From the NCBI GenBank assembly GCA_035507275.1, contig DATJOG010000005.1, positions 37,854-101,853 on the forward strand: DNA of 64,000 nt, in the 5' to 3' direction. This document shows positions 2,599 to 52,059 of this stretch, one piece after another. The notes beneath the pieces were generated by a model. It did not search any database, was not told the origin of the DNA, and saw only the letters and a list, made by a program, of their open reading frames with translations. Position 1 is the stretch's first letter; the number at the start of each line of letters is the position of its first letter. Made by a program: the position numbers and the translations under genes. The DNA comes from Candidatus Acidiferrales bacterium. Its GTDB lineage: Bacteria > Vulcanimicrobiota > Vulcanimicrobiia > Vulcanimicrobiales > Vulcanimicrobiaceae.

Positions 2599-4644
2599 TT
2601 CGAGCGCCGGCACGTGCGCGGCCGTCGCGTTCATCGTGAGTAAATCGTAGGTTGCCACGATCTCGTCACGTTGATTGAAGACTGCAACCGACCAGCGGAC
2701 CTCGCCGTACTCGGGCTTGCGCGGTTTCTTCTCTTTCACCGTGAGCCGCACGCGCATCACGTCGCCCGGATAGACCGGGGTGAGGAAGCGCAGGTTTTCG
2801 AGACCGTAGTTCGCGAGCACGGGCCCCAACTGCGGGCGCACGAAGAGTCCCGCAGCGAACGAGAGGATCAGATAGCCGTGCGCGACGCGCCCCTCGAAGA
2901 ACGGACTCGCCTTTGCTGCCGCTTCGTCCATGTGCGCGTAAAACGCGTCGCCGGTAAAGTCTGCGAAGTGCTCGATGTCGGCAAGCGTGATCTCTCGCGA
3001 GCGCGTGTAAAACGTCTCGCCGATACGCAGTTCCTCGTAGGCGCGCTCGAAGGGATGGCCGTCCGCTTCGACTTCGCTCGCGCCCGCGTTCCAAACGCCG
3101 CTCACCGTCGCTAGGCGCTGCGGCGTCCCTTGCACCGCCGTACGCTGCATGTAATGGTAGACGCCGCGTACGCCGCCCATCTCTTCACCGCCGCCGGCGC
3201 GCCCCGGTCCACCGTGCACGAGCGGTGCGAGCGGCGAGCCGTGGCCCGTCTGTTCCTTCGCGTCGTCACGATCGACCACGAGCACACGGCCGTGGAACGG
3301 CGCGATGCCGAGCACGATCGCATCCGCGGCCGCCGCATCGTAGGAAAAGATCGAGGCAACCAGGCTGCCTTCGCCGCGATTGGCGATCTCGATCGCATCG
3401 TCGATCGAATCGTACGCCATGAGCGTCGTTACCGGGCCGAATGCCTCGATGCCGTGCACGCGCGTCGCCGCGAGCGGACGGTCGCAGCGCAGCACGATCG
3501 GCGAAAGAAAAGCGCCGGCCGTCGCGTCGGCGTCGACTAGCTGCGGCGGCGCATCGAGATCGCCGTAGACGATTTGCGCCTCCCGCGCGAGCTCTCGCAC
3601 CGCTGCGAGCACGTCCTCGCGCTGACTGCGGCTCACGAGCGCCCCCATCGTAACCTGGGCGCTGCGCGGATCGCCGAGCACGGCCTTGTCCAGGCGCGCT
3701 ACGAGTGCGCTCTGCACGCGATCGATCAGCGCGCGCGGTACGATCGCGCGGCGAATGCAGGTGCAGCGCTGACCCGCCTTGGTCGTGATCTCGCGCGCGA
3801 CTTCTTTGACGAACAGATCGAACTCCGGCGCGTCTTCGCGTACGTCGGGACCCAGGATGGCGGCGTTGAGCGAATCGCGTTCCGCGATGAAGCGCACGCT
3901 GTTCGCCGTGATCGCGGCGATGCGCTGCAGTTTGACCGCCGTGTGCGCCGAGCCGGTGAAGGAAACGACGTCTTGCCCAGTCAGCCGCTCGAGCAGATCG
4001 CCGAGCGATCCGGCGATGAACTGCACGCTGCCCTCGGGCAGAATACCCGATGCAACGATCTCTTCGAAAACGGCGTAGGCGACGTACGCGGTTTGCGTCG
4101 CCGGTTTCACGATCGCCGGAACGCCCGCGATGATCGCGGGCGCAAGCTTCTCGAGCATACCCCAGCACGGAAAATTGTACGCGTTGATGTGTACGGCGGC
4201 GCCGCGCAGCGGCGTCATGATGTGACGTCCGGCGAACGTCCCGCCCTTGGAGAGCGGCTCGACGGGCCCGTCGACCGCGACCCGCGAATCGGGAAGCTCG
4301 CGGCGCGCTTTCGACGCGAACGAGCGCAGCGTGATGATGCCGCCGTCGATATCGGTCCAACTATCCTTGCGCGTCGCTCCGGTCTCGAACGAGAGCTGAT
4401 AAAAGCGTTCCTTGCACTCATCCAGATGCGCGGCGAGACGCTTGATCGCGTCGGCGCGCTCATGGAAGGTCATCGAGCGAAGTGCCGGGCCGCCCACGTT
4501 GCGCGCGTAGTCGAGCACCCGCTGAAAATCGATGCCCGCACTCGAAACCAGCGCAACCGTACGCCCGTCTACCGCCGACGGTACTTCGGTGAACCCATCC
4601 GGAGCCTCGTACCAGGCGCCCTCGACGTAGCTGCGCAGTTTCAT
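2581..4644 (-). CDS. paaZ: bifunctional oxepin-CoA hydrolase / aldehyde dehydrogenase PaaZ (ALDH + MaoC hotdog)
   Basis: 687 aa. It has an N-terminal ALDH fold with the catalytic-Cys context [11 protein letters not shown] and a C-terminal MaoC-like dehydratase ([25 protein letters not shown]). The last five codons (LSSRA) and the TAG stop are repeat-derived. Confidence 0.85.
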
Positions 4645-44025: not shown

Positions 44026-44418
44026 CTAGAACGTTCCGACGAGCTGGACCTCGAGCGGATGACGGAAGGGCATCTCCGAGAGATAGGTGAGCGGCGTGAA
44101 GGCGAGATGATTCTGGTGGCAATCGATCAACATCTCGAGGCCGCGCTTCACGCATCCCGTCTCCTCGATGTACTTCGAGAGCTTCTTCGTGAAGTACGAG
44201 TGCGGATCGTGCAGCACTTTGGCGTAATACGGATCGTCGGTCAAACCGACGGCCGAGATTCCTTCTTTGGGAACGAGCCAGACGAACCACGGATCTTGAT
44301 TGCGACGGTACCCGATCATGACCAGCGGAATCGCCCGCGAGGAGTCGAGGTGCGGAAGGAAACTGCACAGCGTGTACGCGTCGAATGAAATCTCCGTTGG
44401 TTCGATCGTCTGGTGCAT
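44026..44418 (-). CDS. hypothetical protein, compositionally atypical (more A/T-rich)
   Basis: 130 aa from the second ATG (44418), which has GAGAGAGGAA 6 nt upstream. It is rich in Y/F/K/H/I, unlike its neighbours. I recognise no motif. Confidence 0.55.
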   Translation of the reverse strand: MHQTIEPTEISFDAYTLCSFLPHLDSSRAIPLVMIGYRRNQDPWFVWLVPKEGISAVGLTDDPYYAKVLHDPHSYFTKKLSKYIEETGCVKRGLEMLIDCHQNHLAFTPLTYLSEMPFRHPLEVQLVGTF

Positions 44419-44440
44419 GGGCGTTCCTCTCTCGAATGCC

Positions 44441-44484
44441 ATAAAACAACAACCGCCGCGTCGTTACGAACGACCGGCGGTTGT
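44441..44484 (-). promoter_or_regulatory. terminator-like hairpin in the leader of the 44026..44418 gene
   Basis: ACAACCGCCG (44449-58) pairs with CGGCGGTTGT (44475-84), with an inner GTCGTT/AACGAC stem. On the minus strand it is followed by TGTTTTAT. No upstream minus-strand gene exists for it to terminate. Confidence 0.35.
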
Positions 44485-44619
44485 CGGAAAGGCGCGTGCG
44501 GCACATCGTGTACCATGATCGAAGGTTCCCCCGGCGCCCGCGGCGGCCCTGGCGCCTCAGGAATTTCTTGGCGCGGGCGTGAAACCGTAGGGAGGCCGGG
44601 AGCGGTCAAGTACGAGAGT

Positions 44620-45288
44620 ATGAGCGTGCTCGCACCACTCCCTCTGGGAGTCTACGTGCCACCAGCGATCCAGCCGGTCAAACCAGCGCCCGACCGGGCG
44701 CCGGGCAAGGCCGCGCCGAGTGTCGAGAACTTCGATCAGATCGTGGACGATTACCAACGCCGTCTCTACGGTTTCGCCCTTCGTATGACGGGCAATCGCG
44801 AAGACGCCGAGGAGATCGTACAGGACGCGTTCGTGCGCGCTTACCGCGCGCTTGGTAAAATGTCGTTCGAGCAACGCGCCGATCTGCGCTTGCAGCCGTG
44901 GCTCTACACCATCACCCTCAACGTCACGCGCAACCGCCTGCGCAGCAAGCGTCCGACGAACGTTGCGCTCGACTCGCTCGCCGATCCGGACGCGCTGCTT
45001 CGCGAATCGCACGAGGGACCGCCGCAGCCTGAGACGATCGTCGAGCAGAACGCCGAGGTCGCGCTCGTCGAGCAGGCGCTGCTGCAGCTGCCGGTACACT
45101 TGCGCGCCGCTGCCACGCTGCGCTTCATCGAAGGGCGCAGCCACCCGGAGATCGCCGAGATCCTCCATCAGCCGATCGGCACGGTAAAGTCGCACGTTCA
45201 TCGCGCGGTGCGTATCTTGCGGCGCATTCTCGGTCCGCAGATCGGACGCATCGCTCCCGAAGGAGACCCTTTACATGCGCTGTCGTGA
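44620..45288 (+). CDS. ECF-type RNA polymerase sigma-70 factor
   Basis: Trimmed to the ATG at 44620. Region 2 is DAEEIVQDAFVRAYRAL...QPWLYTITLNVTRNRLR. Region 4 is RFIEGRSHPEIAEILHQPIGTVKSHVHRAVRILR. Confidence 0.85.
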   Translation: MSVLAPLPLGVYVPPAIQPVKPAPDRAPGKAAPSVENFDQIVDDYQRRLYGFALRMTGNREDAEEIVQDAFVRAYRALGKMSFEQRADLRLQPWLYTITLNVTRNRLRSKRPTNVALDSLADPDALLRESHEGPPQPETIVEQNAEVALVEQALLQLPVHLRAAATLRFIEGRSHPEIAEILHQPIGTVKSHVHRAVRILRRILGPQIGRIAPEGDPLHALS

Positions 45289-46018
45289 CGTCGAACAACT
45301 CTGGGACGAGGTTCGCGCCGATTGCCGCGAAACGGTTAAAGAAGCCGTCGACATCCATCTGCGCGCATGCGAGCATTGCCAGGAGCTTTATAAGGAGTTC
45401 GAAGGCGTCGCCTATTGCCTCTCCTGCCTGCCCTCGCCGGAGCCGTCCTGCAATCTGACCAAGAAGGTCGTCGAGCACATCGCTCAGATCAAGGCGCGCG
45501 AGCGCACGACGCCGGTCGTGCTTTCGTCGGCGCAGACGCCGATCGGCCGCCTCTACGTCGGCTTCAAGGAAGATCGCATCGCGTACATCGGCATCGACAC
45601 CGGTGAAGCGTTCGAAGCGGTGCGCGCGCGCGTCGAGAGCCGCCTGCGCCGTCCCGTCGTCGCGGGCGAAGCGCCGTTTTGGCTGAGCAAGACGCTCGAG
45701 CAATTCTTCGACACGTGGCGGGTCGACGACCGGGTCGTGGACATCGAGGACTTGACCCCTTTCGAACAGGCGGCGCTCCGGGCGGCAGCTCGGATCCCTC
45801 CGGGTGAGGTGCGCTCCTACTCGTGGGTCGCCTCGCAGATCGGGCGCCCGCGTGCAGCGCGCGCGGTCGGCCAGGTCATGGCCCGCAATCCGCTCCCGCT
45901 GCTTTTCCCGTGCCACCGTGTGGTCGACGCACGAGGCGAACTCCACAACTACGGCTACGGGATCGAGATGAAGGCACGCCTGCTCAAGATGGAAGGCTAC
46001 ATCGCGCGCAAGCTGTAA
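45275..46018 (+). CDS. zf-HC2 (ZAS-type) anti-sigma domain fused to O6-alkylguanine-DNA alkyltransferase (Ogt/MGMT)
   Basis: One 247-aa ORF that overlaps the sigma gene by 14 nt. It has C3...H28-x3-C32-x2-C35 (HLRACEHC) and no TM segment. The C-terminal ~170 aa form an MGMT domain (TPFEQAALRAAARIPPGEVRSYSWVA..RAVGQVMARNPLPLLFPCHRVV). Confidence 0.8.
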   Translation: MRCRDVEQLWDEVRADCRETVKEAVDIHLRACEHCQELYKEFEGVAYCLSCLPSPEPSCNLTKKVVEHIAQIKARERTTPVVLSSAQTPIGRLYVGFKEDRIAYIGIDTGEAFEAVRARVESRLRRPVVAGEAPFWLSKTLEQFFDTWRVDDRVVDIEDLTPFEQAALRAAARIPPGEVRSYSWVASQIGRPRAARAVGQVMARNPLPLLFPCHRVVDARGELHNYGYGIEMKARLLKMEGYIARKL

Positions 46019-46026
46019 CCTAGAGC

Positions 46027-46740
46027 GTGGTGGCTAAACACATCCTCATTGCGGGCTTCGAGCCCTTCTCCGGCGACAAAGTCAACCCCAGCGAGATGGT
46101 TGCCCGCAGTTTCGAGGGCGCGCTGCTAGCCGGGCGTCCCGTCGCGGTACGCGTCATCCCGGTCGAAACGCGCAACATCCACGAGCGCTTCGAGCAAGCG
46201 CTGCTGCAAGACCACCCCGACATCGTGATCCTGCTTTCGCAGTTCGGCGGCCGCACCGCGCTTTCGATCGAGCGCGTCGCCGTCAACGTTCTCGATTTCG
46301 AGGGCGACAACGTCGGCGTCGTTCGCAAGAACGACGTCATTACGCGCGGCGGTCCCGAGGCGCGTATTTCCAATCTGCCGTTCTCGCAGATCGTCGAAGC
46401 GTGGAACGCGGCCGGCGTCCCCGGATACGTCTCCAACACGGCCGGCACGTTCATCGGCAATCAAGCGCTCTACGAGGTGATCGCGATCACCGAAAATGCC
46501 GTGCCGCCCGCAATCGTGGGCCTGGTGCATCTACCCTATCTGCCCGCGCAGGCGATCGCCGCCGGTGCCGAAACGAACCCCTCGATGTCATTCGATGTGA
46601 TGAAAAAAGGCGTCGAGGTCATGGTCGAGACCCTCGTTCCGTGGGTCGACGGCCGCACGCCGGAGGCTACCAAGACTCCACGCCTCGGCGCGAAACCCGG
46701 AGCCTGGATCCCGCGCGGTGTAAAGGAAGTAGAACGCTGA
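46027..46740 (+). CDS. pyroglutamyl-peptidase I (C15) homolog lacking the catalytic cysteine
   Basis: 237 aa with GFEPFSGDKVNPS, the Glu context SIERVAVNV and the His context GLVHLPYLPAQ. The nucleophile motif TAGTFVCN reads TAGTFIGN here. Confidence 0.8.
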   Translation: MVAKHILIAGFEPFSGDKVNPSEMVARSFEGALLAGRPVAVRVIPVETRNIHERFEQALLQDHPDIVILLSQFGGRTALSIERVAVNVLDFEGDNVGVVRKNDVITRGGPEARISNLPFSQIVEAWNAAGVPGYVSNTAGTFIGNQALYEVIAITENAVPPAIVGLVHLPYLPAQAIAAGAETNPSMSFDVMKKGVEVMVETLVPWVDGRTPEATKTPRLGAKPGAWIPRGVKEVER

Positions 46741-48320
46741 GCGACCCTCGTATTGCTGCGATTCCCGATGTGCACGGTCACGCGAAGGGCGAGCACCGCC
46801 CGTTTGCCGAGGAACGGCCGATCGCGTATTCGCCGCGCATGCTCTTTTTGTGGTTCTACCATGCATGCCGGCGCAATTCGCCGCGCTTTCTCATGGTTTC
46901 GGACCATATCAACTATTTGACGTTCGAAGATCCCGGCGCGGTGCATACCGTGCGCCGTGCGCTCAAGCTCGCGCACGCCGGCGATCTCTACGGCGCCGCG
47001 GAGACCGCCGGCGTCGACGTGACTCACGCCGCCGTGGTCGGCGAAAGCTTGCGGCGAGGAATGCGCTTCTCGATCGGCGCTGAGGTCGACAACGATCCAC
47101 GCGCAAGACCGGATGCGCAGAATATCGTGGACGCGATGCGGCCGGACGGAATCATCCGCTCGGTCCATTTCTTGCCGATCGATCATCCGGAGAAGGGGGC
47201 CGACTACATGTGGCCCTACGACAATCCGGAGTTCGCGCATCTCTTCGAGCATGTCGGCGTCGACAAGGTGTGGGAGCTATACACCGCGCGCCTCTTCGAC
47301 GACATCGAGAAACTACCGGGACACGTCGTGGGCCACTTCTATCGCCCCGCCATTCTGGGTCGCTGGCCCGACGAGAAAAAACTCGAGGCCTACGAAGACC
47401 GGCTGCTCGATCTCGCGCACGCGCGCGGGATGGCGGTCGAGATCAGCACGCGCCAGATCTACCGCGCAAGCGACGACGAGCAGCGCGCGAAGTACATCGC
47501 CGCCAACAAGCGCCTGATGCGCAAAGCGCAGGCGCGCGGCGTCGGTATCTCGATCGGCTCGGATGCGCACAGCCCGAAGGATCAGGGCGGAGCCTTCGAC
47601 GTCGTGCTCGCGATGCTCGACGAGTGCGGCATCAACGAGGTCTGCTTTCCGGTGGCCGGACGTCTGGCTCGCGTCGTCTTACGCGCAACGCGCGAACATC
47701 TCGAAGCGCACGCGCAGCGTTCGCCCGAACCGGTACAGCCCGGCAGCAGCATCAGCGGCTTCAGCCGCGCCGAACTCGGCCTTCCCGAAGAGGCCGAGCT
47801 GCAGCCGCGCGCGCGAGAGGGCGCCAAAGGGCGCGAAGCGGGTCCAAAGAAGCGCGCGAGCAGTCCGGAGCGCACGACCAAGAAGCCGACGCCGCCGGCA
47901 GCTCCGGCGAAGTCTTCCTCCAAACGCAGTCCCGAATCGGCAGCTTCTTCGAAAGCCGCGTCCGCAAAAAAGAGCGCCGCGGTGAAAAAAGCCGCTCCGG
48001 TGAAGAAAGCAGCCGATGTTAAGAAGGCCGCGCCCGCTAAGAAGGCGCCGGCCAAGACCGCACCTGCGAAAAAAGCGGCACCCGCGAAGAAGGCGGCACC
48101 CGTAAAGGCAGCGCCCGCAAAGAAGGCGCCCGCGAAAAAGGTGCCCGCAGGTAAGGCGCCCGCGAAAAAGACGCCGGTGAAGAAGGCCGCCGTGAAAAAA
48201 GCGGCGCCCGTCAAGAAAGCTGCGGCGAAGAAAACCGCCGTCAAGAAAGCGAAGCCCGCCGCCAAGCCGGCAGCGAAGAAAAAAGGTTCGACCAAGAAGA
48301 AAACGACCAAACGCCGTTAG
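46737..48320 (+). CDS. PHP-domain phosphoesterase fused to a histone-H1-like Lys/Ala/Pro-rich tail
   Basis: PHP motifs are IPDVHGH, SDHINY, SVHFLP, VGHFY and IGSDAHSP. The tail (~47841-48317) has AAPAKKA/AVKKAAPVKK repeats. The start is uncertain: the only in-frame candidate before DVHGH without a long overlap is the CTG at 46737 (CTGA overlap). Confidence 0.65.
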   Translation: MSDPRIAAIPDVHGHAKGEHRPFAEERPIAYSPRMLFLWFYHACRRNSPRFLMVSDHINYLTFEDPGAVHTVRRALKLAHAGDLYGAAETAGVDVTHAAVVGESLRRGMRFSIGAEVDNDPRARPDAQNIVDAMRPDGIIRSVHFLPIDHPEKGADYMWPYDNPEFAHLFEHVGVDKVWELYTARLFDDIEKLPGHVVGHFYRPAILGRWPDEKKLEAYEDRLLDLAHARGMAVEISTRQIYRASDDEQRAKYIAANKRLMRKAQARGVGISIGSDAHSPKDQGGAFDVVLAMLDECGINEVCFPVAGRLARVVLRATREHLEAHAQRSPEPVQPGSSISGFSRAELGLPEEAELQPRAREGAKGREAGPKKRASSPERTTKKPTPPAAPAKSSSKRSPESAASSKAASAKKSAAVKKAAPVKKAADVKKAAPAKKAPAKTAPAKKAAPAKKAAPVKAAPAKKAPAKKVPAGKAPAKKTPVKKAAVKKAAPVKKAAAKKTAVKKAKPAAKPAAKKKGSTKKKTTKRR

Positions 48321-48331
48321 GCGATCGGAGA

Positions 48332-50386
48332 GTGGCCATGGATATCTCGCGGCAGCGCAATATCGCTTTCGTCGGTCCGCATCACGCCGGCAAAACCACG
48401 CTCGTGGAAGCCGTGCTCGCGCAGAGCGGCGCGATCCCGCGCCGCGGTTCGATCACCGACGGAACCACGGTCACCGACTACGAGCCCGAGGATGTTTCGC
48501 ACGCGCAGTCCACGACGGCGGGATTTGCGCACTGTACGACCGGCCAGATCGATCTCACCATTCTCGACGCGCCGGGCTTCATCGATTTCTTCGAAGAGAC
48601 GAAGCTCGTGCTGTGCGGATCGGATGCCGCCGTGATCGTCGTCGAAGCCGACCCCGCGCGCGTCGTGCAAACCAAGACGCTCGTCGACTACCTCGAGGCA
48701 CGCAAGATGCCGCACTGTTTCGCGGTCAACAAGCTCGATCGCCCCGGTGCGGATTTCGAAGGAACGCTTGCGGCGCTGCAATCGCTCTACGGCCGCCACG
48801 TCGTCGCCGAACAATGGCCGATTTTCACGCGCTCCGCTGCCAATGAGAAGACCAGCGGTTTTTCAGGCTACGTCGATCTCGCCGACATGAAGGCGTACGC
48901 CTTCGATGGTGAGCGCGAACGCGAAGGTGCGGTCCCGGGCGACGTGCTCGAACGCGTGAAGACCGCGCACGCCGAACTACTCGAAGCAATGGCCGACTTC
49001 GACGACCATCTGATGGAAGAGCTGCTCGAAGGCATCGAACCGCCGCTCGACGAGGTCGAGCGCGATCTTTGCAGCGAGTGCTCCCACGATCAAATCGTTC
49101 CGGTGCTGGTTACCGCCGGCTCGAGCGGAGCGGGGATACCCGCGCTGCTGCGCGCGCTCGAGCGATGGTTCCCCTCGCCCGCGGACGCACCGGTGCTCGA
49201 CGCGGAGGGCCGCGCGATTGCGGCCGATCCCGCAGGCCCGGTGATCGCGCAGGTCATCAAGACGGCCATTCACCCGCAGTCCGGCAAGCTTTCGATCGTG
49301 CGCGTGCTCTCGGGAACGCTGAAAGCGGACGCGACGCTCACCGACATTTCACAAGGCGATGAGAAAGTGCGTTCGGGCGGGCTCTATCGCTTGCAAGGCA
49401 AGAAACAGGAGGCGATCGCCGAGGCCGGACCCGGCTCGATCGTTGCGATCGCGCGCCTGGAGCCCGTCAAGACGGGCGACGTGCTCACGAGCAACGGCGC
49501 CAAGGTATTACTGCCGCGCGTCTCGCTCTGCGCGCCGTGCTTTGCGATCGCGATAAAACCGAAGGAGCGCATCGACGAAGCAAAGATCTTCCAAATGCTC
49601 GCGCGCATCGTCGACGAGGATCCCTCGCTGCAATTGACGCGCGCCGAGATCACCGGCGAGCTGCTCCTGCTCGGCTCGGGCGAGCAGCACGTGACGATCG
49701 CGGTCGAACGGCTCGCGCGTAAGTACAAGGTCGAAGTCGAGACGGCGGCGCCGCAGATCCCGTATCAGGAAACGATCACGGCCGGTACGGAAGTCCATTC
49801 ACGCTACAAGCACCAAACCGGCGGTCACGGGCAGTTTGCCGACGTTTGGCTGCGCTTCGAGCCGCGCGAGCGCGGCGCCGGGGTTTCGTTCGACGAAAAA
49901 ATCGTCGGCGGCGTCGTCCCGCGGCAGTTCATTCCGGCCGTCGAAAAGGGCGTCCGCGAAGCGCTCGCGCACGGGCCCGGCGGTTATCCGGTGACCGACG
50001 TTCACATTACGCTCTACGACGGTCAATATCACGACGTTGATTCGAGCGAGCAATCGTTCAAAACGGCGGCCGGCATGGGCGTGCGCGACGCGCTCCCCAA
50101 GTGCCACCCGGTCGTGCTGGAACCGATCTCGCGCGTTACGGTCACCGTGCCGACGCAATATACCTCGACCGTGATTCAGCAGCTTACGGGCAAGCGCGGT
50201 CAAATTCTGGGCATGAACCCGGCGGATCAGACCGGGTTCGACCTGGTCGAAGCCGACGTTCCGCAAGTCGAGCTTTCGCGCTACATCACGGAACTTCGCA
50301 CCGGAACGCAGGGCCTGGGGACCTTCTCCGCCCGGCACGAGCGGTACGATCCGGTGCCCGGAAACAAGGTGGCGTCTAAGGTATAG
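48332..50386 (+). CDS. elongation factor G family GTPase (divergent paralog)
   Basis: 684 aa with G1 GPHHAGKTT and G4 NKLD. All five EF-G domains are recognisable (e.g. HSRYKHQTGGHGQFADV, GVVPRQFIPAVEKG). G3 reads DAPGFIDF instead of DTPGHVDF. Confidence 0.8.
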   Translation: MAMDISRQRNIAFVGPHHAGKTTLVEAVLAQSGAIPRRGSITDGTTVTDYEPEDVSHAQSTTAGFAHCTTGQIDLTILDAPGFIDFFEETKLVLCGSDAAVIVVEADPARVVQTKTLVDYLEARKMPHCFAVNKLDRPGADFEGTLAALQSLYGRHVVAEQWPIFTRSAANEKTSGFSGYVDLADMKAYAFDGEREREGAVPGDVLERVKTAHAELLEAMADFDDHLMEELLEGIEPPLDEVERDLCSECSHDQIVPVLVTAGSSGAGIPALLRALERWFPSPADAPVLDAEGRAIAADPAGPVIAQVIKTAIHPQSGKLSIVRVLSGTLKADATLTDISQGDEKVRSGGLYRLQGKKQEAIAEAGPGSIVAIARLEPVKTGDVLTSNGAKVLLPRVSLCAPCFAIAIKPKERIDEAKIFQMLARIVDEDPSLQLTRAEITGELLLLGSGEQHVTIAVERLARKYKVEVETAAPQIPYQETITAGTEVHSRYKHQTGGHGQFADVWLRFEPRERGAGVSFDEKIVGGVVPRQFIPAVEKGVREALAHGPGGYPVTDVHITLYDGQYHDVDSSEQSFKTAAGMGVRDALPKCHPVVLEPISRVTVTVPTQYTSTVIQQLTGKRGQILGMNPADQTGFDLVEADVPQVELSRYITELRTGTQGLGTFSARHERYDPVPGNKVASKV

Positions 50387-50403
50387 GGCAATAAAGGGCG
50401 GAT

Positions 50404-52059
50404 TTGTTCGCTTCGAAGGGGATTTTTCGCTTCGTGAAACGTCTATTCGCGCTTGCTGCCTTAGCCGGAATCCTCGCGGGTTGCTCCAAGGTCTCGAACG
50501 GATCGGGCGGCGATCACTCGTGGACGCAACCCGGCGTGCTGCGCATCGCGCTGCAGACCGAACCGAAAAATCTCGATCCGCTGCTGACGTCGGAGACGAC
50601 CGACGTCTTCGTCAGCCGCTTCATGTTCCTGCCGCTCATTCAACCCGACGGCAACGGCGTGCAACAGCCGCTGCTGGCGACCGAAGTTCCAACCAGAGCG
50701 AACGGCGGGGTGAGTGCGGACGGCCTCACGATCACGTATCACCTGCGCAAGGACGTGAAATGGAGCGACGGTGTCCCCGTCACGAGCAAGGACGTCAAGT
50801 GGACGTGGACGGCGATCATGAACCCGAACAACAATATCGTCTCGCGTCACGGCTACGACGAAGTCAAATCGGTCGATACACCCGATCCGTATACCGTGAT
50901 CGTGCATCTGAAAGAAAAATTCTCGCCCTTCGTCAACACGTTTTTCACCGACAGCGATCAACCGTACAGCGTCGCGCCCGAGCACGTGCTAGCGAAATAC
51001 CCCAACGTCAATCAGATCCCGTTCAATAGCGAGCCGACCGTCACCGACGGGCCTTTCCGCTTCGGCGAGTGGGTTCACAACGATCACATCTCGCTCGTGG
51101 CGAATCAGAATTTCTTCCTCGGCAAGCCCGGGCTCGATCGCATCGAGATCAAGATCATTCCCGACGAGAACACGTCGGTCGAAGAGTTCAAAGCGCACGC
51201 CATCGACTGGATCTATCAGGCCTCGATCCATCTCTATCCGCAAGTGAAGGATACCGAAGGCACCAAAATCGTGTGGATGCGCGTCAACGGCTATTACGAC
51301 GTGCAGTTCAATACCGCGAGCCCGTCGCTGAAGAACGTGCTCGTGCGGCAAGCGATCGCTTACGCGATCGACAAGCAGAGCTTGGTAAACACGACGATGT
51401 ACGGTCAGGAGACGCCCGCGACCGAAGACATTCCCGATTGGATGTGGGCCTACGATCCGACACTGAAGTCATATCCGTATGACGTCGACAAAGCGCGCCA
51501 GCTGCTCACACAAGCGGGCTACAGTCCGGGCGCGAACGGTATGATGCAAAAGGGCGGCGCACCGCTCTCGCTTCTCCTCGTGACCGAGAACTCGAACGTC
51601 ACCTACAGGCAACTCGCGTTGCTCGTGCAAGCCCAGCTGCGCCGCGTCGGCATCGACTCGCAGATCAAGCTCTTTCCTGGGGCGCAGCTTTATGCGCCGG
51701 CCGGCGAAGGCGGCATCCTGCAGCTCGGGCATTTCGACTTGATCGTCGACGGCTGGTACTCCGGCATCGATCCCGACGATTCCGCGCAATTCATGTGCGA
51801 AAACGTACCGCCCGGCGGGTACAATTACAGCCGGTATTGTAGTCCCGAGATGGACGCGGCAGAGACGATGGCGCTCACGCACTACGACCAAGCCACGCGC
51901 AAGGCCGCGTACGCCAAGACCCAGGCGCTGCTGGCGCGCGACGTTCCCGAGCTGTTCATCAACTGGTTGCGTCAGATGCACCCCATCAACGCCGACTTCA
52001 AAGGTCTCGATCCGAACCCGGTCGTCGAGAACTGGAACGCATGGCAATGGAGCATTTAG
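50404..52059 (+). CDS. ABC-transporter family-5 solute-binding lipoprotein (third paralog)
   Basis: It has lipobox ILAGC, and ATEVPTRANGGVSADGLTITYHLRKDVKWSDG nearly matches the 8792..10417 protein. The start is TTG at 50404 or the GTG of VKRLFAL. Confidence 0.8.
   Translation: MFASKGIFRFVKRLFALAALAGILAGCSKVSNGSGGDHSWTQPGVLRIALQTEPKNLDPLLTSETTDVFVSRFMFLPLIQPDGNGVQQPLLATEVPTRANGGVSADGLTITYHLRKDVKWSDGVPVTSKDVKWTWTAIMNPNNNIVSRHGYDEVKSVDTPDPYTVIVHLKEKFSPFVNTFFTDSDQPYSVAPEHVLAKYPNVNQIPFNSEPTVTDGPFRFGEWVHNDHISLVANQNFFLGKPGLDRIEIKIIPDENTSVEEFKAHAIDWIYQASIHLYPQVKDTEGTKIVWMRVNGYYDVQFNTASPSLKNVLVRQAIAYAIDKQSLVNTTMYGQETPATEDIPDWMWAYDPTLKSYPYDVDKARQLLTQAGYSPGANGMMQKGGAPLSLLLVTENSNVTYRQLALLVQAQLRRVGIDSQIKLFPGAQLYAPAGEGGILQLGHFDLIVDGWYSGIDPDDSAQFMCENVPPGGYNYSRYCSPEMDAAETMALTHYDQATRKAAYAKTQALLARDVPELFINWLRQMHPINADFKGLDPNPVVENWNAWQWSI

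Follow-up and report, generated by a model that had tools for sequence, protein, structure and literature searches.

An extracytoplasmic function sigma factor gene paired with a candidate anti-sigma/alkyltransferase fusion gene in Vulcanimicrobiota and other bacterial phyla

The DNA analyzed here, referred to as the window, is a stretch of 64,000 nucleotides (nt) from contig DATJOG010000005.1 of assembly GCA_035507275.1 (positions 37,854 to 101,853, forward strand). It comes from a soil bacterium of the Vulcanimicrobiota, a phylum that also goes by the names Eremiobacterota and WPS-2. An adjoining pair of genes on the (+) strand is the subject of this study: a gene for an extracytoplasmic function (ECF) sigma factor and, directly behind it, a gene whose single open reading frame (ORF) joins a predicted class I anti-sigma domain of the zinc-binding (ZAS) type to an O6-alkylguanine alkyltransferase (MGMT). 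The features of the pair, in window positions, are as follows.

44579..44607, + strand: promoter-like element of ECF type, GTGAAACC-N15-GCGGTC, with 12 nt between its end and the sigma ATG
44620..45288, + strand: ECF sigma factor gene, 222 aa (Pfam Sigma70_r2 and Sigma70_r4_2; NCBIfam)
45260..45265, + strand: Shine-Dalgarno sequence AAGGAG, 9 nt 5' of the fusion ATG and within the 3' end of the sigma gene (read in the sequence)
45275..46018, + strand: predicted anti-sigma-domain/MGMT fusion gene, 247 aa plus stop, ATG start, uninterrupted ORF
45275..45508, + strand: predicted class I anti-sigma domain, residues 1-78 (family profile, zf-HC2 in relatives, AlphaFold helices)
45281..45379, + strand: span of the predicted ZAS zinc-ligand codons, C3 (45281-83), H28 (45356-58), C32 (45368-70) and C35 (45377-79) (codons read)
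45509..45748, + strand: MGMT N-terminal ribonuclease-like domain, residues 79-158 (Ogt model, AlphaFold, Foldseek)
45749..46015, + strand: MGMT C-terminal catalytic/DNA-binding domain, residues 159-247 (PF01035, TIGR00589)
45911..45913, + strand: codon of the alkyl-acceptor Cys213 in P-C-H-R (read in the sequence)

The upstream ORF was recognized as a sigma factor gene both in a Pfam scan (Sigma70_r2, E 8e-16; Sigma70_r4_2, E 2e-13) and by TIGR02937 (99 bits against a cut-off of 43), and NCBIfam assigned it to sigma70-ECF, where SigW and RpoE ranked first among the named models. Its product consists of sigma2 and sigma4 regions and has no sigma3, which places it among the ECF (group 4 sigma70) factors. 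The nearest solved structures are AlgU, SigW, SigH and SigE, and a further homolog search returned close sigma orthologs only. A conserved Pro-rich N-terminal extension of ~35 aa (44620-44725) lies ahead of sigma region 2, and the ATG at 44620 is conserved among Vulcanimicrobiota loci together with its flanking DNA.

The fusion gene, whose first 14 nt (from 45275) coincide with the 3' end of the sigma gene (45288), is predicted to be translationally coupled to it. This arrangement is a constant feature of the family. An ECF sigma ORF was found directly upstream and on the same strand in 82/82 related loci examined, which belong to Vulcanimicrobiota, Acidobacteriota/Thermoanaerobaculia, Chloroflexota (Dehalococcoidia, Chloroflexia), Latescibacterota and Actinomycetota, and in all 82 the two genes either overlapped by 3-14 nt or were separated by a gap of at most 7 nt. 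Five further loci, picked by protein identity, showed the same order of sigma and fusion gene. The rest of the neighbourhood differs among the phyla, as is usual for sigma/anti-sigma pairs. At one locus from a Vulcanimicrobiota metagenome-assembled genome (MAG; L040, 3329-4729) the two genes share one frame with no stop between them, which represents either a natural sigma/anti-sigma/MGMT triple fusion or an indel error of long-read sequencing.

The N-terminal part of the fusion protein carries a complete ligand motif, C3-x24-H28-x3-C32-x2-C35 ('HLRACEHC'). These four residues, as well as H68 and the acceptor C213, were each kept in 53/53 complete Vulcanimicrobiota orthologs, and the four ZAS positions were invariant in three alignments (A1, A2 and A3) reaching down to 29% identity. 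Because C3, H28, C32, C35 and C213 are invariant over this range, a chance origin of the pattern is excluded. To place the module among known structures, a family profile of residues 1-85 (the N-terminal ~80) was made from 29 diverse members and compared with solved domains. It matched RsiW, as seen in the SigW/RsiW complex, with an E-value of 7e-9 over profile positions 1-76, the cysteine-free helix 4 included. RslA (1e-5), ChrR (2e-3) and DdvA (2e-3) were also matched, and the match to RsrA was marginal (E 0.24). In addition, zf-HC2 was called individually in 18/29 family members, and PF13490 was called on the distant full-length relatives P0140, P0146, P0152 and P0182.

An AlphaFold2 model of the fusion protein (pLDDT 83.6, pTM 0.67) places N-terminal helices at residues 3-14, 19-31, 33-50 and 61-74, with lower confidence in the loop 51-60. 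This is the class I arrangement, a three-helix bundle with a fourth helix on a flexible linker, and the model contains no hydrophobic membrane helix. A class I domain uses helices 1 and 4 to sequester sigma; a conserved helix-1 Asp (D11 in RseA) is a coevolving contact to sigma4, and helix 4 makes most of the contacts to sigma2.1/2.2 (PMC7406223). D11 in helix 1 of the window protein corresponds to this sigma4-contacting Asp (PMC7406223) and is invariant in the family alignments. Helices 1-3 are also better conserved among orthologs than the MGMT N-domain (mean pairwise identity 66% vs 51%). By every sequence-level test, the N-terminal module is a class I ZAS anti-sigma domain, for which binding of sigma and of zinc is predicted.

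Further ligand-like residues lie in the loop that joins helices 3 and 4. C48-x2-C51-x7-C59-x8-H68 (45416-45478) is kept at 46, 45, 38 and 53 of 53 orthologs, respectively, in a region where model confidence is ~62. This pattern is clade-specific and absent from the three-domain relatives described below; a lineage whose members have no Ada-Zn tail may here possess a second metal site. C17 (45323-45325) is kept in 35/53 orthologs. It was also considered whether the ZAS module is a cryptic Ada-Zn domain. Against the Ada Zn site of P0152, the segment at 45281-45388 (C3...C32-x2-C35) scores 12 bits over the second half (C...PC-x2-C), but only the C-x26-C-x2-C spacing is shared, at chance level, and the idea was rejected.

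The remainder of the protein is covered by alkyltransferase models. DNA_binding_1 (PF01035) scored 101 bits against a cut-off of 27 (E 2.8e-29), TIGR00589 scored 92 bits against 46 (E 2.3e-26), and the E. coli Ogt model NF007626 covers residues 88-243. In the AlphaFold model, the MGMT beta-sheet and helices have pLDDT >90 and the MGMT N-domain begins 6 residues past anti-sigma helix 4. Foldseek recovered the full folds of M. tuberculosis OGT and E. coli Ada-C over ~165 residues (TM 0.74-0.77). The N-domain model Methyltransf_1N (PF02870) was not called by Pfam on the window protein, nor on residues 79-160 scanned alone, and it was called on the close relative P0121. Y182, R196, N205, P212, C213, H214, R215 and E240 are invariant in the alignments down to 29% identity, and the acceptor Cys was retained in every complete ortholog examined. 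In two Pseudonocardiaceae loci (L078, L081) the motif reads G-C-H-R in place of P-C-H-R, with the Cys kept. The MGMT part is accordingly classed, from its sequence, as a full member of the alkyltransferase family with intact catalytic residues, and alkyl transfer is predicted.

A preliminary description of the locus had already proposed an uninterrupted 247-aa ORF overlapping an ECF sigma gene by 14 nt, a complete ZAS motif with no transmembrane segment behind it and an intact MGMT with PCHR, and each of these points was borne out. The linkage to an ECF sigma that it raised as a question for other genomes proved constant, and the routine loss of the PCHR cysteine that it had seen as a threat to its reading was not encountered. 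Of the domain models it had named, PF01035 was called on the window protein itself, and PF13490 and PF02870 were called on relatives only.

To delineate the family, public data and genomes were searched. Apart from a 100% identical protein (P0001), public data contain more than 120 full-length clusters of 242-250 aa at 71-94% identity. At least 598 relatives emerged when species-representative genomes were scanned, and ~57 Vulcanimicrobiota species are represented among the 80 best. The source labels conflict in places: P0001 is labelled 'Candidatus Acidoferrales bacterium', L056 Limnocylindria and one sigma homolog Verrucomicrobiae. These MAG records are probably mislabelled, since all close relatives are Vulcanimicrobiota. 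At another Vulcanimicrobiota locus (L059, 4038-4778) the copy is frameshifted or degenerate, with a garbled MGMT N-domain and C-terminus and a weak upstream sigma match, and is possibly a pseudogene or an assembly error.

An exhaustive profile search uncovered distant full-length relatives of 290-320 aa that combine zf-HC2, MGMT and Ada_Zn_binding. The latter domain was called with E-values of 1e-10 to 4e-14, and all four methylphosphotriester-acceptor Cys are present. A search seeded with one such three-domain relative returned 1,524 clusters at E <=1e-10. Among the best 120 of these, which come from Acidobacteriota, Longimicrobiales and Chloroflexota, all carry MGMT and Ada-Zn, zf-HC2 is precomputed in about half, and the only label is 'methylated-DNA-protein-cysteine methyltransferase'. 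The Ada-Zn domain in hundreds of relatives ties the family to alkylation sensing. By its domain content, the window protein is the short form, with a full ZAS anti-sigma domain and MGMT and without the Ada-Zn tail.

Other members depart from this plan at the N-terminus. The Actinomycetota homologs (L064, L067, L070-L074, L076-L078, L080-L082) are without helices 1-3 and the ZAS motif; they have a helix-4-like segment, 'L..L...AP..L...VL', directly before MGMT, followed by an Ada-Zn tail, and are still translationally coupled to an ECF sigma, which has TGCAACC-N15-GGGGTT ahead of it. In L063 and L065 (~4040-4140; Latescibacterota-like or unclassified) the zinc ligands are replaced ('EQLAACADSREE', 'EQLEASADCREE'; H to Q, C to S), and these appear from their sequences to be non-zinc variants of the same anti-sigma domain. 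A Chloroflexota locus (L087, 6970-7704 and 7733-8671) holds a sigma/ZAS-MGMT-AdaZn pair directly followed by an MGMT-AdaZn paralog without the anti-sigma domain and then by an HhH-GPD (AlkA-type) glycosylase gene, which together make up a compact alkylation-repair cluster.

Regions 5' of the sigma genes were analyzed by k-mer and bipartite enrichment. GTGAAACC-N15-G(T/C)GGTC was found in 35-40 of 55-59 Vulcanimicrobiota loci, 12-14 nt ahead of the conserved ATG. The 64-kb window contains one strict match (0.17 expected). A scan of both strands of related loci (959 kb) gave 36 matches, 35 of them 5' of the sigma gene. A related element, TGCAACC-N15-(C)GGGGTT, occupies the corresponding position ahead of sigma in 13 Actinomycetota/Dehalococcoidia loci and has no other match in 354 kb. 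Read as TGAAAC-N16-CGGTC, the Vulcanimicrobiota element resembles the SigW promoter consensus, TGAAAC-N16-CGTA. The almost exclusive position of a conserved ECF-type promoter upstream of the sigma gene suggests that sigma transcribes its own operon, and the sigma factors of the different phyla would be orthologous. The operon mRNA is predicted to be near-leaderless, since no more than 12 nt separate the sigma ATG from the -10-like hexamer.

Three genes follow the pair on the same strand.

46027..46740, + strand: pyroglutamyl peptidase gene (PF01470, E 3e-50), 8 nt 3' of the fusion gene; context
46761..48320, + strand: gene for a PHP-domain protein with a Lys/Ala-rich histone-H1-like tail (PF02811, E 8.7e-5, below the Pfam cut-off; start uncertain, ORF from 46401)
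48332..50386, + strand: gene for an EF-G-like GTPase paralog, 684 aa, syntenic in 43/59 related loci

From 45288 to 50600 the plus strand is free of terminator-like sites, and the three genes may be co-transcribed with the pair. The pyroglutamyl peptidase gene is found downstream in only 22/59 related loci. DNA homologous to the PHP-domain region, with the homology established at DNA and not at protein level, occurs downstream in 57/59 Vulcanimicrobiota loci. The tail of the PHP-domain protein (~150 aa) is rich in Lys, Ala and Pro, with AKKAAPAKK-type repeats like those of histone H1 or HU tails, and the protein is possibly a DNA-bound phosphoesterase whose gene shares a transcript with the sigma/fusion pair. 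Upstream of the pair, a perfect 10-bp inverted repeat (ACAACCGCCG / CGGCGGTTGT, 44449-44484), with a 16-nt spacer that is itself partly self-complementary, lies ~95 nt upstream of the sigma promoter-like element and 7 nt upstream of a divergent ORF (44026-44442, - strand; 138 aa), for which no Pfam match was found. In the loci outside Vulcanimicrobiota, repair genes are sporadic neighbours: HhH-GPD in 3/28, a PhyH-type oxygenase in 5/28 and endonuclease V (EndoV) in 2/28.

The pair has the layout of known sigma/anti-sigma pairs. Like RsiW/SigW, RslA/SigL, ChrR/RpoE and RsrA/SigR, it includes a protein with an N-terminal four-helix C...HxxxCxxC domain, encoded by a gene that is translationally coupled downstream of its ECF sigma gene, here of the SigW/RpoE/SigH type. 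ChrR, which is soluble and has a C-terminal cytoplasmic domain like the window protein, is a precedent for the fusion of a soluble ZAS domain to a cytoplasmic sensor domain. The difference lies in the C-terminal part, which is a suicide alkyltransferase in the window protein, a membrane anchor in RsiW and RslA, a cupin in ChrR and absent in RsrA. The proposed signal differs as well: it would be an irreversible covalent transfer from damaged DNA, whereas the other pairs respond through externally started proteolysis or reversible thiol oxidation.

A second comparison is with E. coli Ada and B. subtilis AdaA/AdaB, in which an MGMT module is likewise joined to a transcription-control module and the operon is autoregulated, as the promoter suggests for the window operon. 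In E. coli, it is the methylated Cys38 of N-Ada that sets off the adaptive response (PMC10779285). The preliminary description had credited the window protein with the same two chemical modules as Ada, which did not hold: its zinc module is a ZAS of the RsiW type rather than the methyl-accepting module of N-Ada, and a test for the Ada Zn(Cys)4 domain (PF02805) showed it to be absent. The analogy to Ada nevertheless turned out to be more than a resemblance in the distant relatives, which do contain the true Zn(Cys)4 domain with all four Cys. Scans of the window protein and its relatives revealed no AraC-type helix-turn-helix, and the Ada equivalog NF011964 covers only the MGMT part (69 bits against a cut-off of 345). 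Judged by these models, the window protein is not a member of the Ada family, but it may be Ada-like in purpose. The domain order of its relatives is also unlike that of Ada, with the Zn domain at the C-terminus. Where methylated Ada is an active regulator that switches transcription on and is shut off by dilution, the alkylated window protein would be a spent inhibitor that releases sigma, with shut-off by new synthesis.

The association of a sigma factor with MGMT has been catalogued before. In group ECF122, 6-O-methylguanine DNA methyltransferases are conserved nearby, and the group is filed without a cognate anti-sigma factor and with its mechanism unknown, with an example from Cellulomonas (PMC8999054; Figure 7 of PMC7826278). 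The window sigma likewise adjoins a conserved MGMT gene; unlike the actinomycetotal ECF122 example, it belongs to Vulcanimicrobiota and its MGMT partner has a full ZAS domain. The Actinomycetota loci with sigma and MGMT-AdaZn probably correspond to ECF122, and the MGMT protein may be the unrecognized anti-sigma factor of this group. Alkyltransferases fused to other functional modules are also known, namely AGT-EndoV, ATL-EndoV and the histone-like C. elegans AGT-2 (PMC10779285), with repair or chromatin modules as partners, whereas the partner here is a predicted anti-sigma domain. A 2023 review of the alkyltransferase family covers the EndoV and histone-like fusions and Ada, and the word 'sigma' occurs in it 0 times (PMC10779285). 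A full-text literature search yielded no study of an anti-sigma/alkyltransferase fusion and the ECF122 catalogue entry as the sole related record. The claim of the preliminary description that no example had been described has to be narrowed for the gene neighbourhood: the sigma-MGMT association was already known, catalogued though not understood.

Starting from the architecture of the fusion protein, its intact catalytic and zinc-ligand residues, the strict coupling, the conserved sigma-specific promoter and the Ada-Zn-bearing relatives, we tentatively propose that the fusion protein sequesters sigma and that irreversible alkyl transfer to Cys213 destabilizes it, frees sigma and re-induces the operon; we would place this a little short of an even chance. 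We infer that the protein binds sigma, is catalytically active and lets sigma go when alkylated, and that the operon is autoregulated. In the resting cell, sigma would be held in the usual class I manner, its sigma4 region by anti-sigma helix 1 and its sigma2 region by helix 4, and the MGMT domain would scan the DNA. On meeting an O6-alkylguanine or O4-alkylthymine adduct, it would move the alkyl group irreversibly to Cys213. Alkyl transfer is known to loosen the interface of the MGMT N- and C-domains, and alkylated proteins of this kind tend to be unstable and degraded. Because the MGMT N-domain starts so close behind the sigma-binding helix 4, the disturbed fold, or the ensuing proteolysis, could free sigma. 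With GTGAAACC-N15-GCGGTC as promoter, free sigma would then transcribe the near-leaderless operon that encodes it. The new, unalkylated anti-sigma/MGMT protein would repair DNA and recapture sigma. In this way the supply of a stoichiometrically consumed repair protein would track its consumption, and the circuit would terminate itself once damage stops. An autoregulated sigma needs a negative regulator, which makes the fusion protein the candidate, as the sole constantly linked partner.

Several points weigh against this proposal. Pfam did not call zf-HC2 (PF13490) on the window protein, the N-terminal 80 residues scanned alone were blank even at E 10, and the NCBIfam 'antisigma' model reached only 0.0015, so that the anti-sigma assignment rests on family-level evidence. 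Further promoters of a regulon were absent from the 64-kb window, and the 959 kb of related loci contained one stray site. Near the pair in the window, no other alkylation-repair gene was found among the neighbours (pyroglutamyl peptidase, PHP-domain protein, EF-G paralog). The coupling to sigma alone is no proof of anti-sigma function, because the Actinomycetota forms that have only helix 4 stay coupled as well. Methylated E. coli Ada is stable enough to activate transcription, and instability after alkylation is therefore not universal in bacteria. Finally, if sigma and anti-sigma were synthesized 1:1, the amount of MGMT free for repair would be in doubt.

Three other explanations were weighed, each of them considerably less probable in our view. 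In the first, the ZAS zinc-thiolate would itself be a redox or electrophile sensor, as in RsrA-SigR and RshA-SigH, so that oxidation or alkylation of its Cys would release zinc and sigma and MGMT would be a repair output made in fixed proportion. The complete ZAS signature is invariant across phyla, the window sigma resembles SigH and SigE, and the clade-specific C17, C48, C51 and C59 would offer extra reactive thiols; moreover, ~72% of soluble class I anti-sigma domains have zinc motifs, which is consistent with intracellular redox sensing (PMC7406223). What makes this explanation unlikely is that the zinc of the nearest solved relative, RsiW, is reported to be structural (PMC7406223), with RsrA matched only marginally, that the members whose zinc ligands are replaced keep both the sigma coupling and MGMT, and that the Actinomycetota forms have no ZAS at all. 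The constant fusion partner, MGMT and in relatives Ada-Zn, would also be left unexplained.

Alternatively, the protein could be an anti-sigma factor that answers to a signal other than alkyl transfer, such as regulated proteolysis, growth phase or competition between DNA and sigma binding, with MGMT as a co-expressed enzyme or a DNA tether. The evidence for the anti-sigma domain would fit this explanation equally, and the Vulcanimicrobiota neighbourhood, which is free of alkylation-specific genes, and the lack of a detected regulon beyond the operon speak in its favour. It is nevertheless hard to reconcile with the full set of catalytic residues of a suicide enzyme being invariant across five phyla in a regulator, or with the recurrence of a second alkyl-acceptor module, Ada-Zn, in the relatives, and we regard it as improbable.

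The third explanation dispenses with anti-sigma function: sigma would drive a specialized MGMT, and the zinc module would be a structural or DNA-binding accessory like the N-terminal zinc site of human AGT. It would agree with the uncalled zf-HC2 on the window protein, with the Actinomycetota homologs without helices 1-3 and with the ECF122 catalogue, in which MGMT neighbours are listed as possible regulators or targets, which its authors could not distinguish among the neighbours, and no anti-sigma factor is recognized (PMC8999054; PMC7826278). We doubt it, since the match of the family profile to solved anti-sigma domains extends to every one of the four helices, the Cys-free helix 4 among them, and the segment kept in Actinomycetota is exactly helix 4, the main sigma2-binding element (PMC7406223). 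In addition, the anti-sigma helices are better conserved than the MGMT N-domain, and an autoregulated sigma without an inhibitor would run away. That the fusion is an artefact of assembly or frameshift joining two genes, which the preliminary description had named as a risk, has next to no probability and can be excluded for the window ORF on sequence grounds, because the same uninterrupted ORF, 242-255 aa long, occurs in the more than 120 clusters and ~57 species genomes of independent projects; nothing was found in its support, and L059 and L040 show that indels are present in some long-read MAGs.

Taken across the family, we suggest, with somewhat less confidence than for the mechanism itself, that the irreversible consumption of a suicide repair enzyme acting as an anti-sigma sensor is the signal that frees an ECF sigma. 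This would be the ECF counterpart of the Ada response in at least five phyla, and the MGMT(-Ada) protein would be the 'missing' anti-sigma factor of ECF122, with helix 4 and MGMT as its minimal form in Actinomycetota. If true, this would constitute a new class of input to ECF signalling, the covalent single-turnover sensing of a DNA lesion by an anti-sigma factor, and it would show that evolution has arrived twice, independently, at an adaptive response to alkylation. Its logic would be unlike that of Ada, as induction would scale with consumption and be ended by fresh synthesis, and it would give a testable model of how bacteria keep up the supply of a stoichiometric repair protein. Since SNAP-tag chemistry builds on MGMT, one could also conceive of a sigma/anti-sigma switch for synthetic biology that is compact, orthogonal and triggered by benzylguanine-type ligands. 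For the family, an ECF group now listed with no regulator would gain one, and hundreds of proteins labelled only as methyltransferases would have to be re-annotated.

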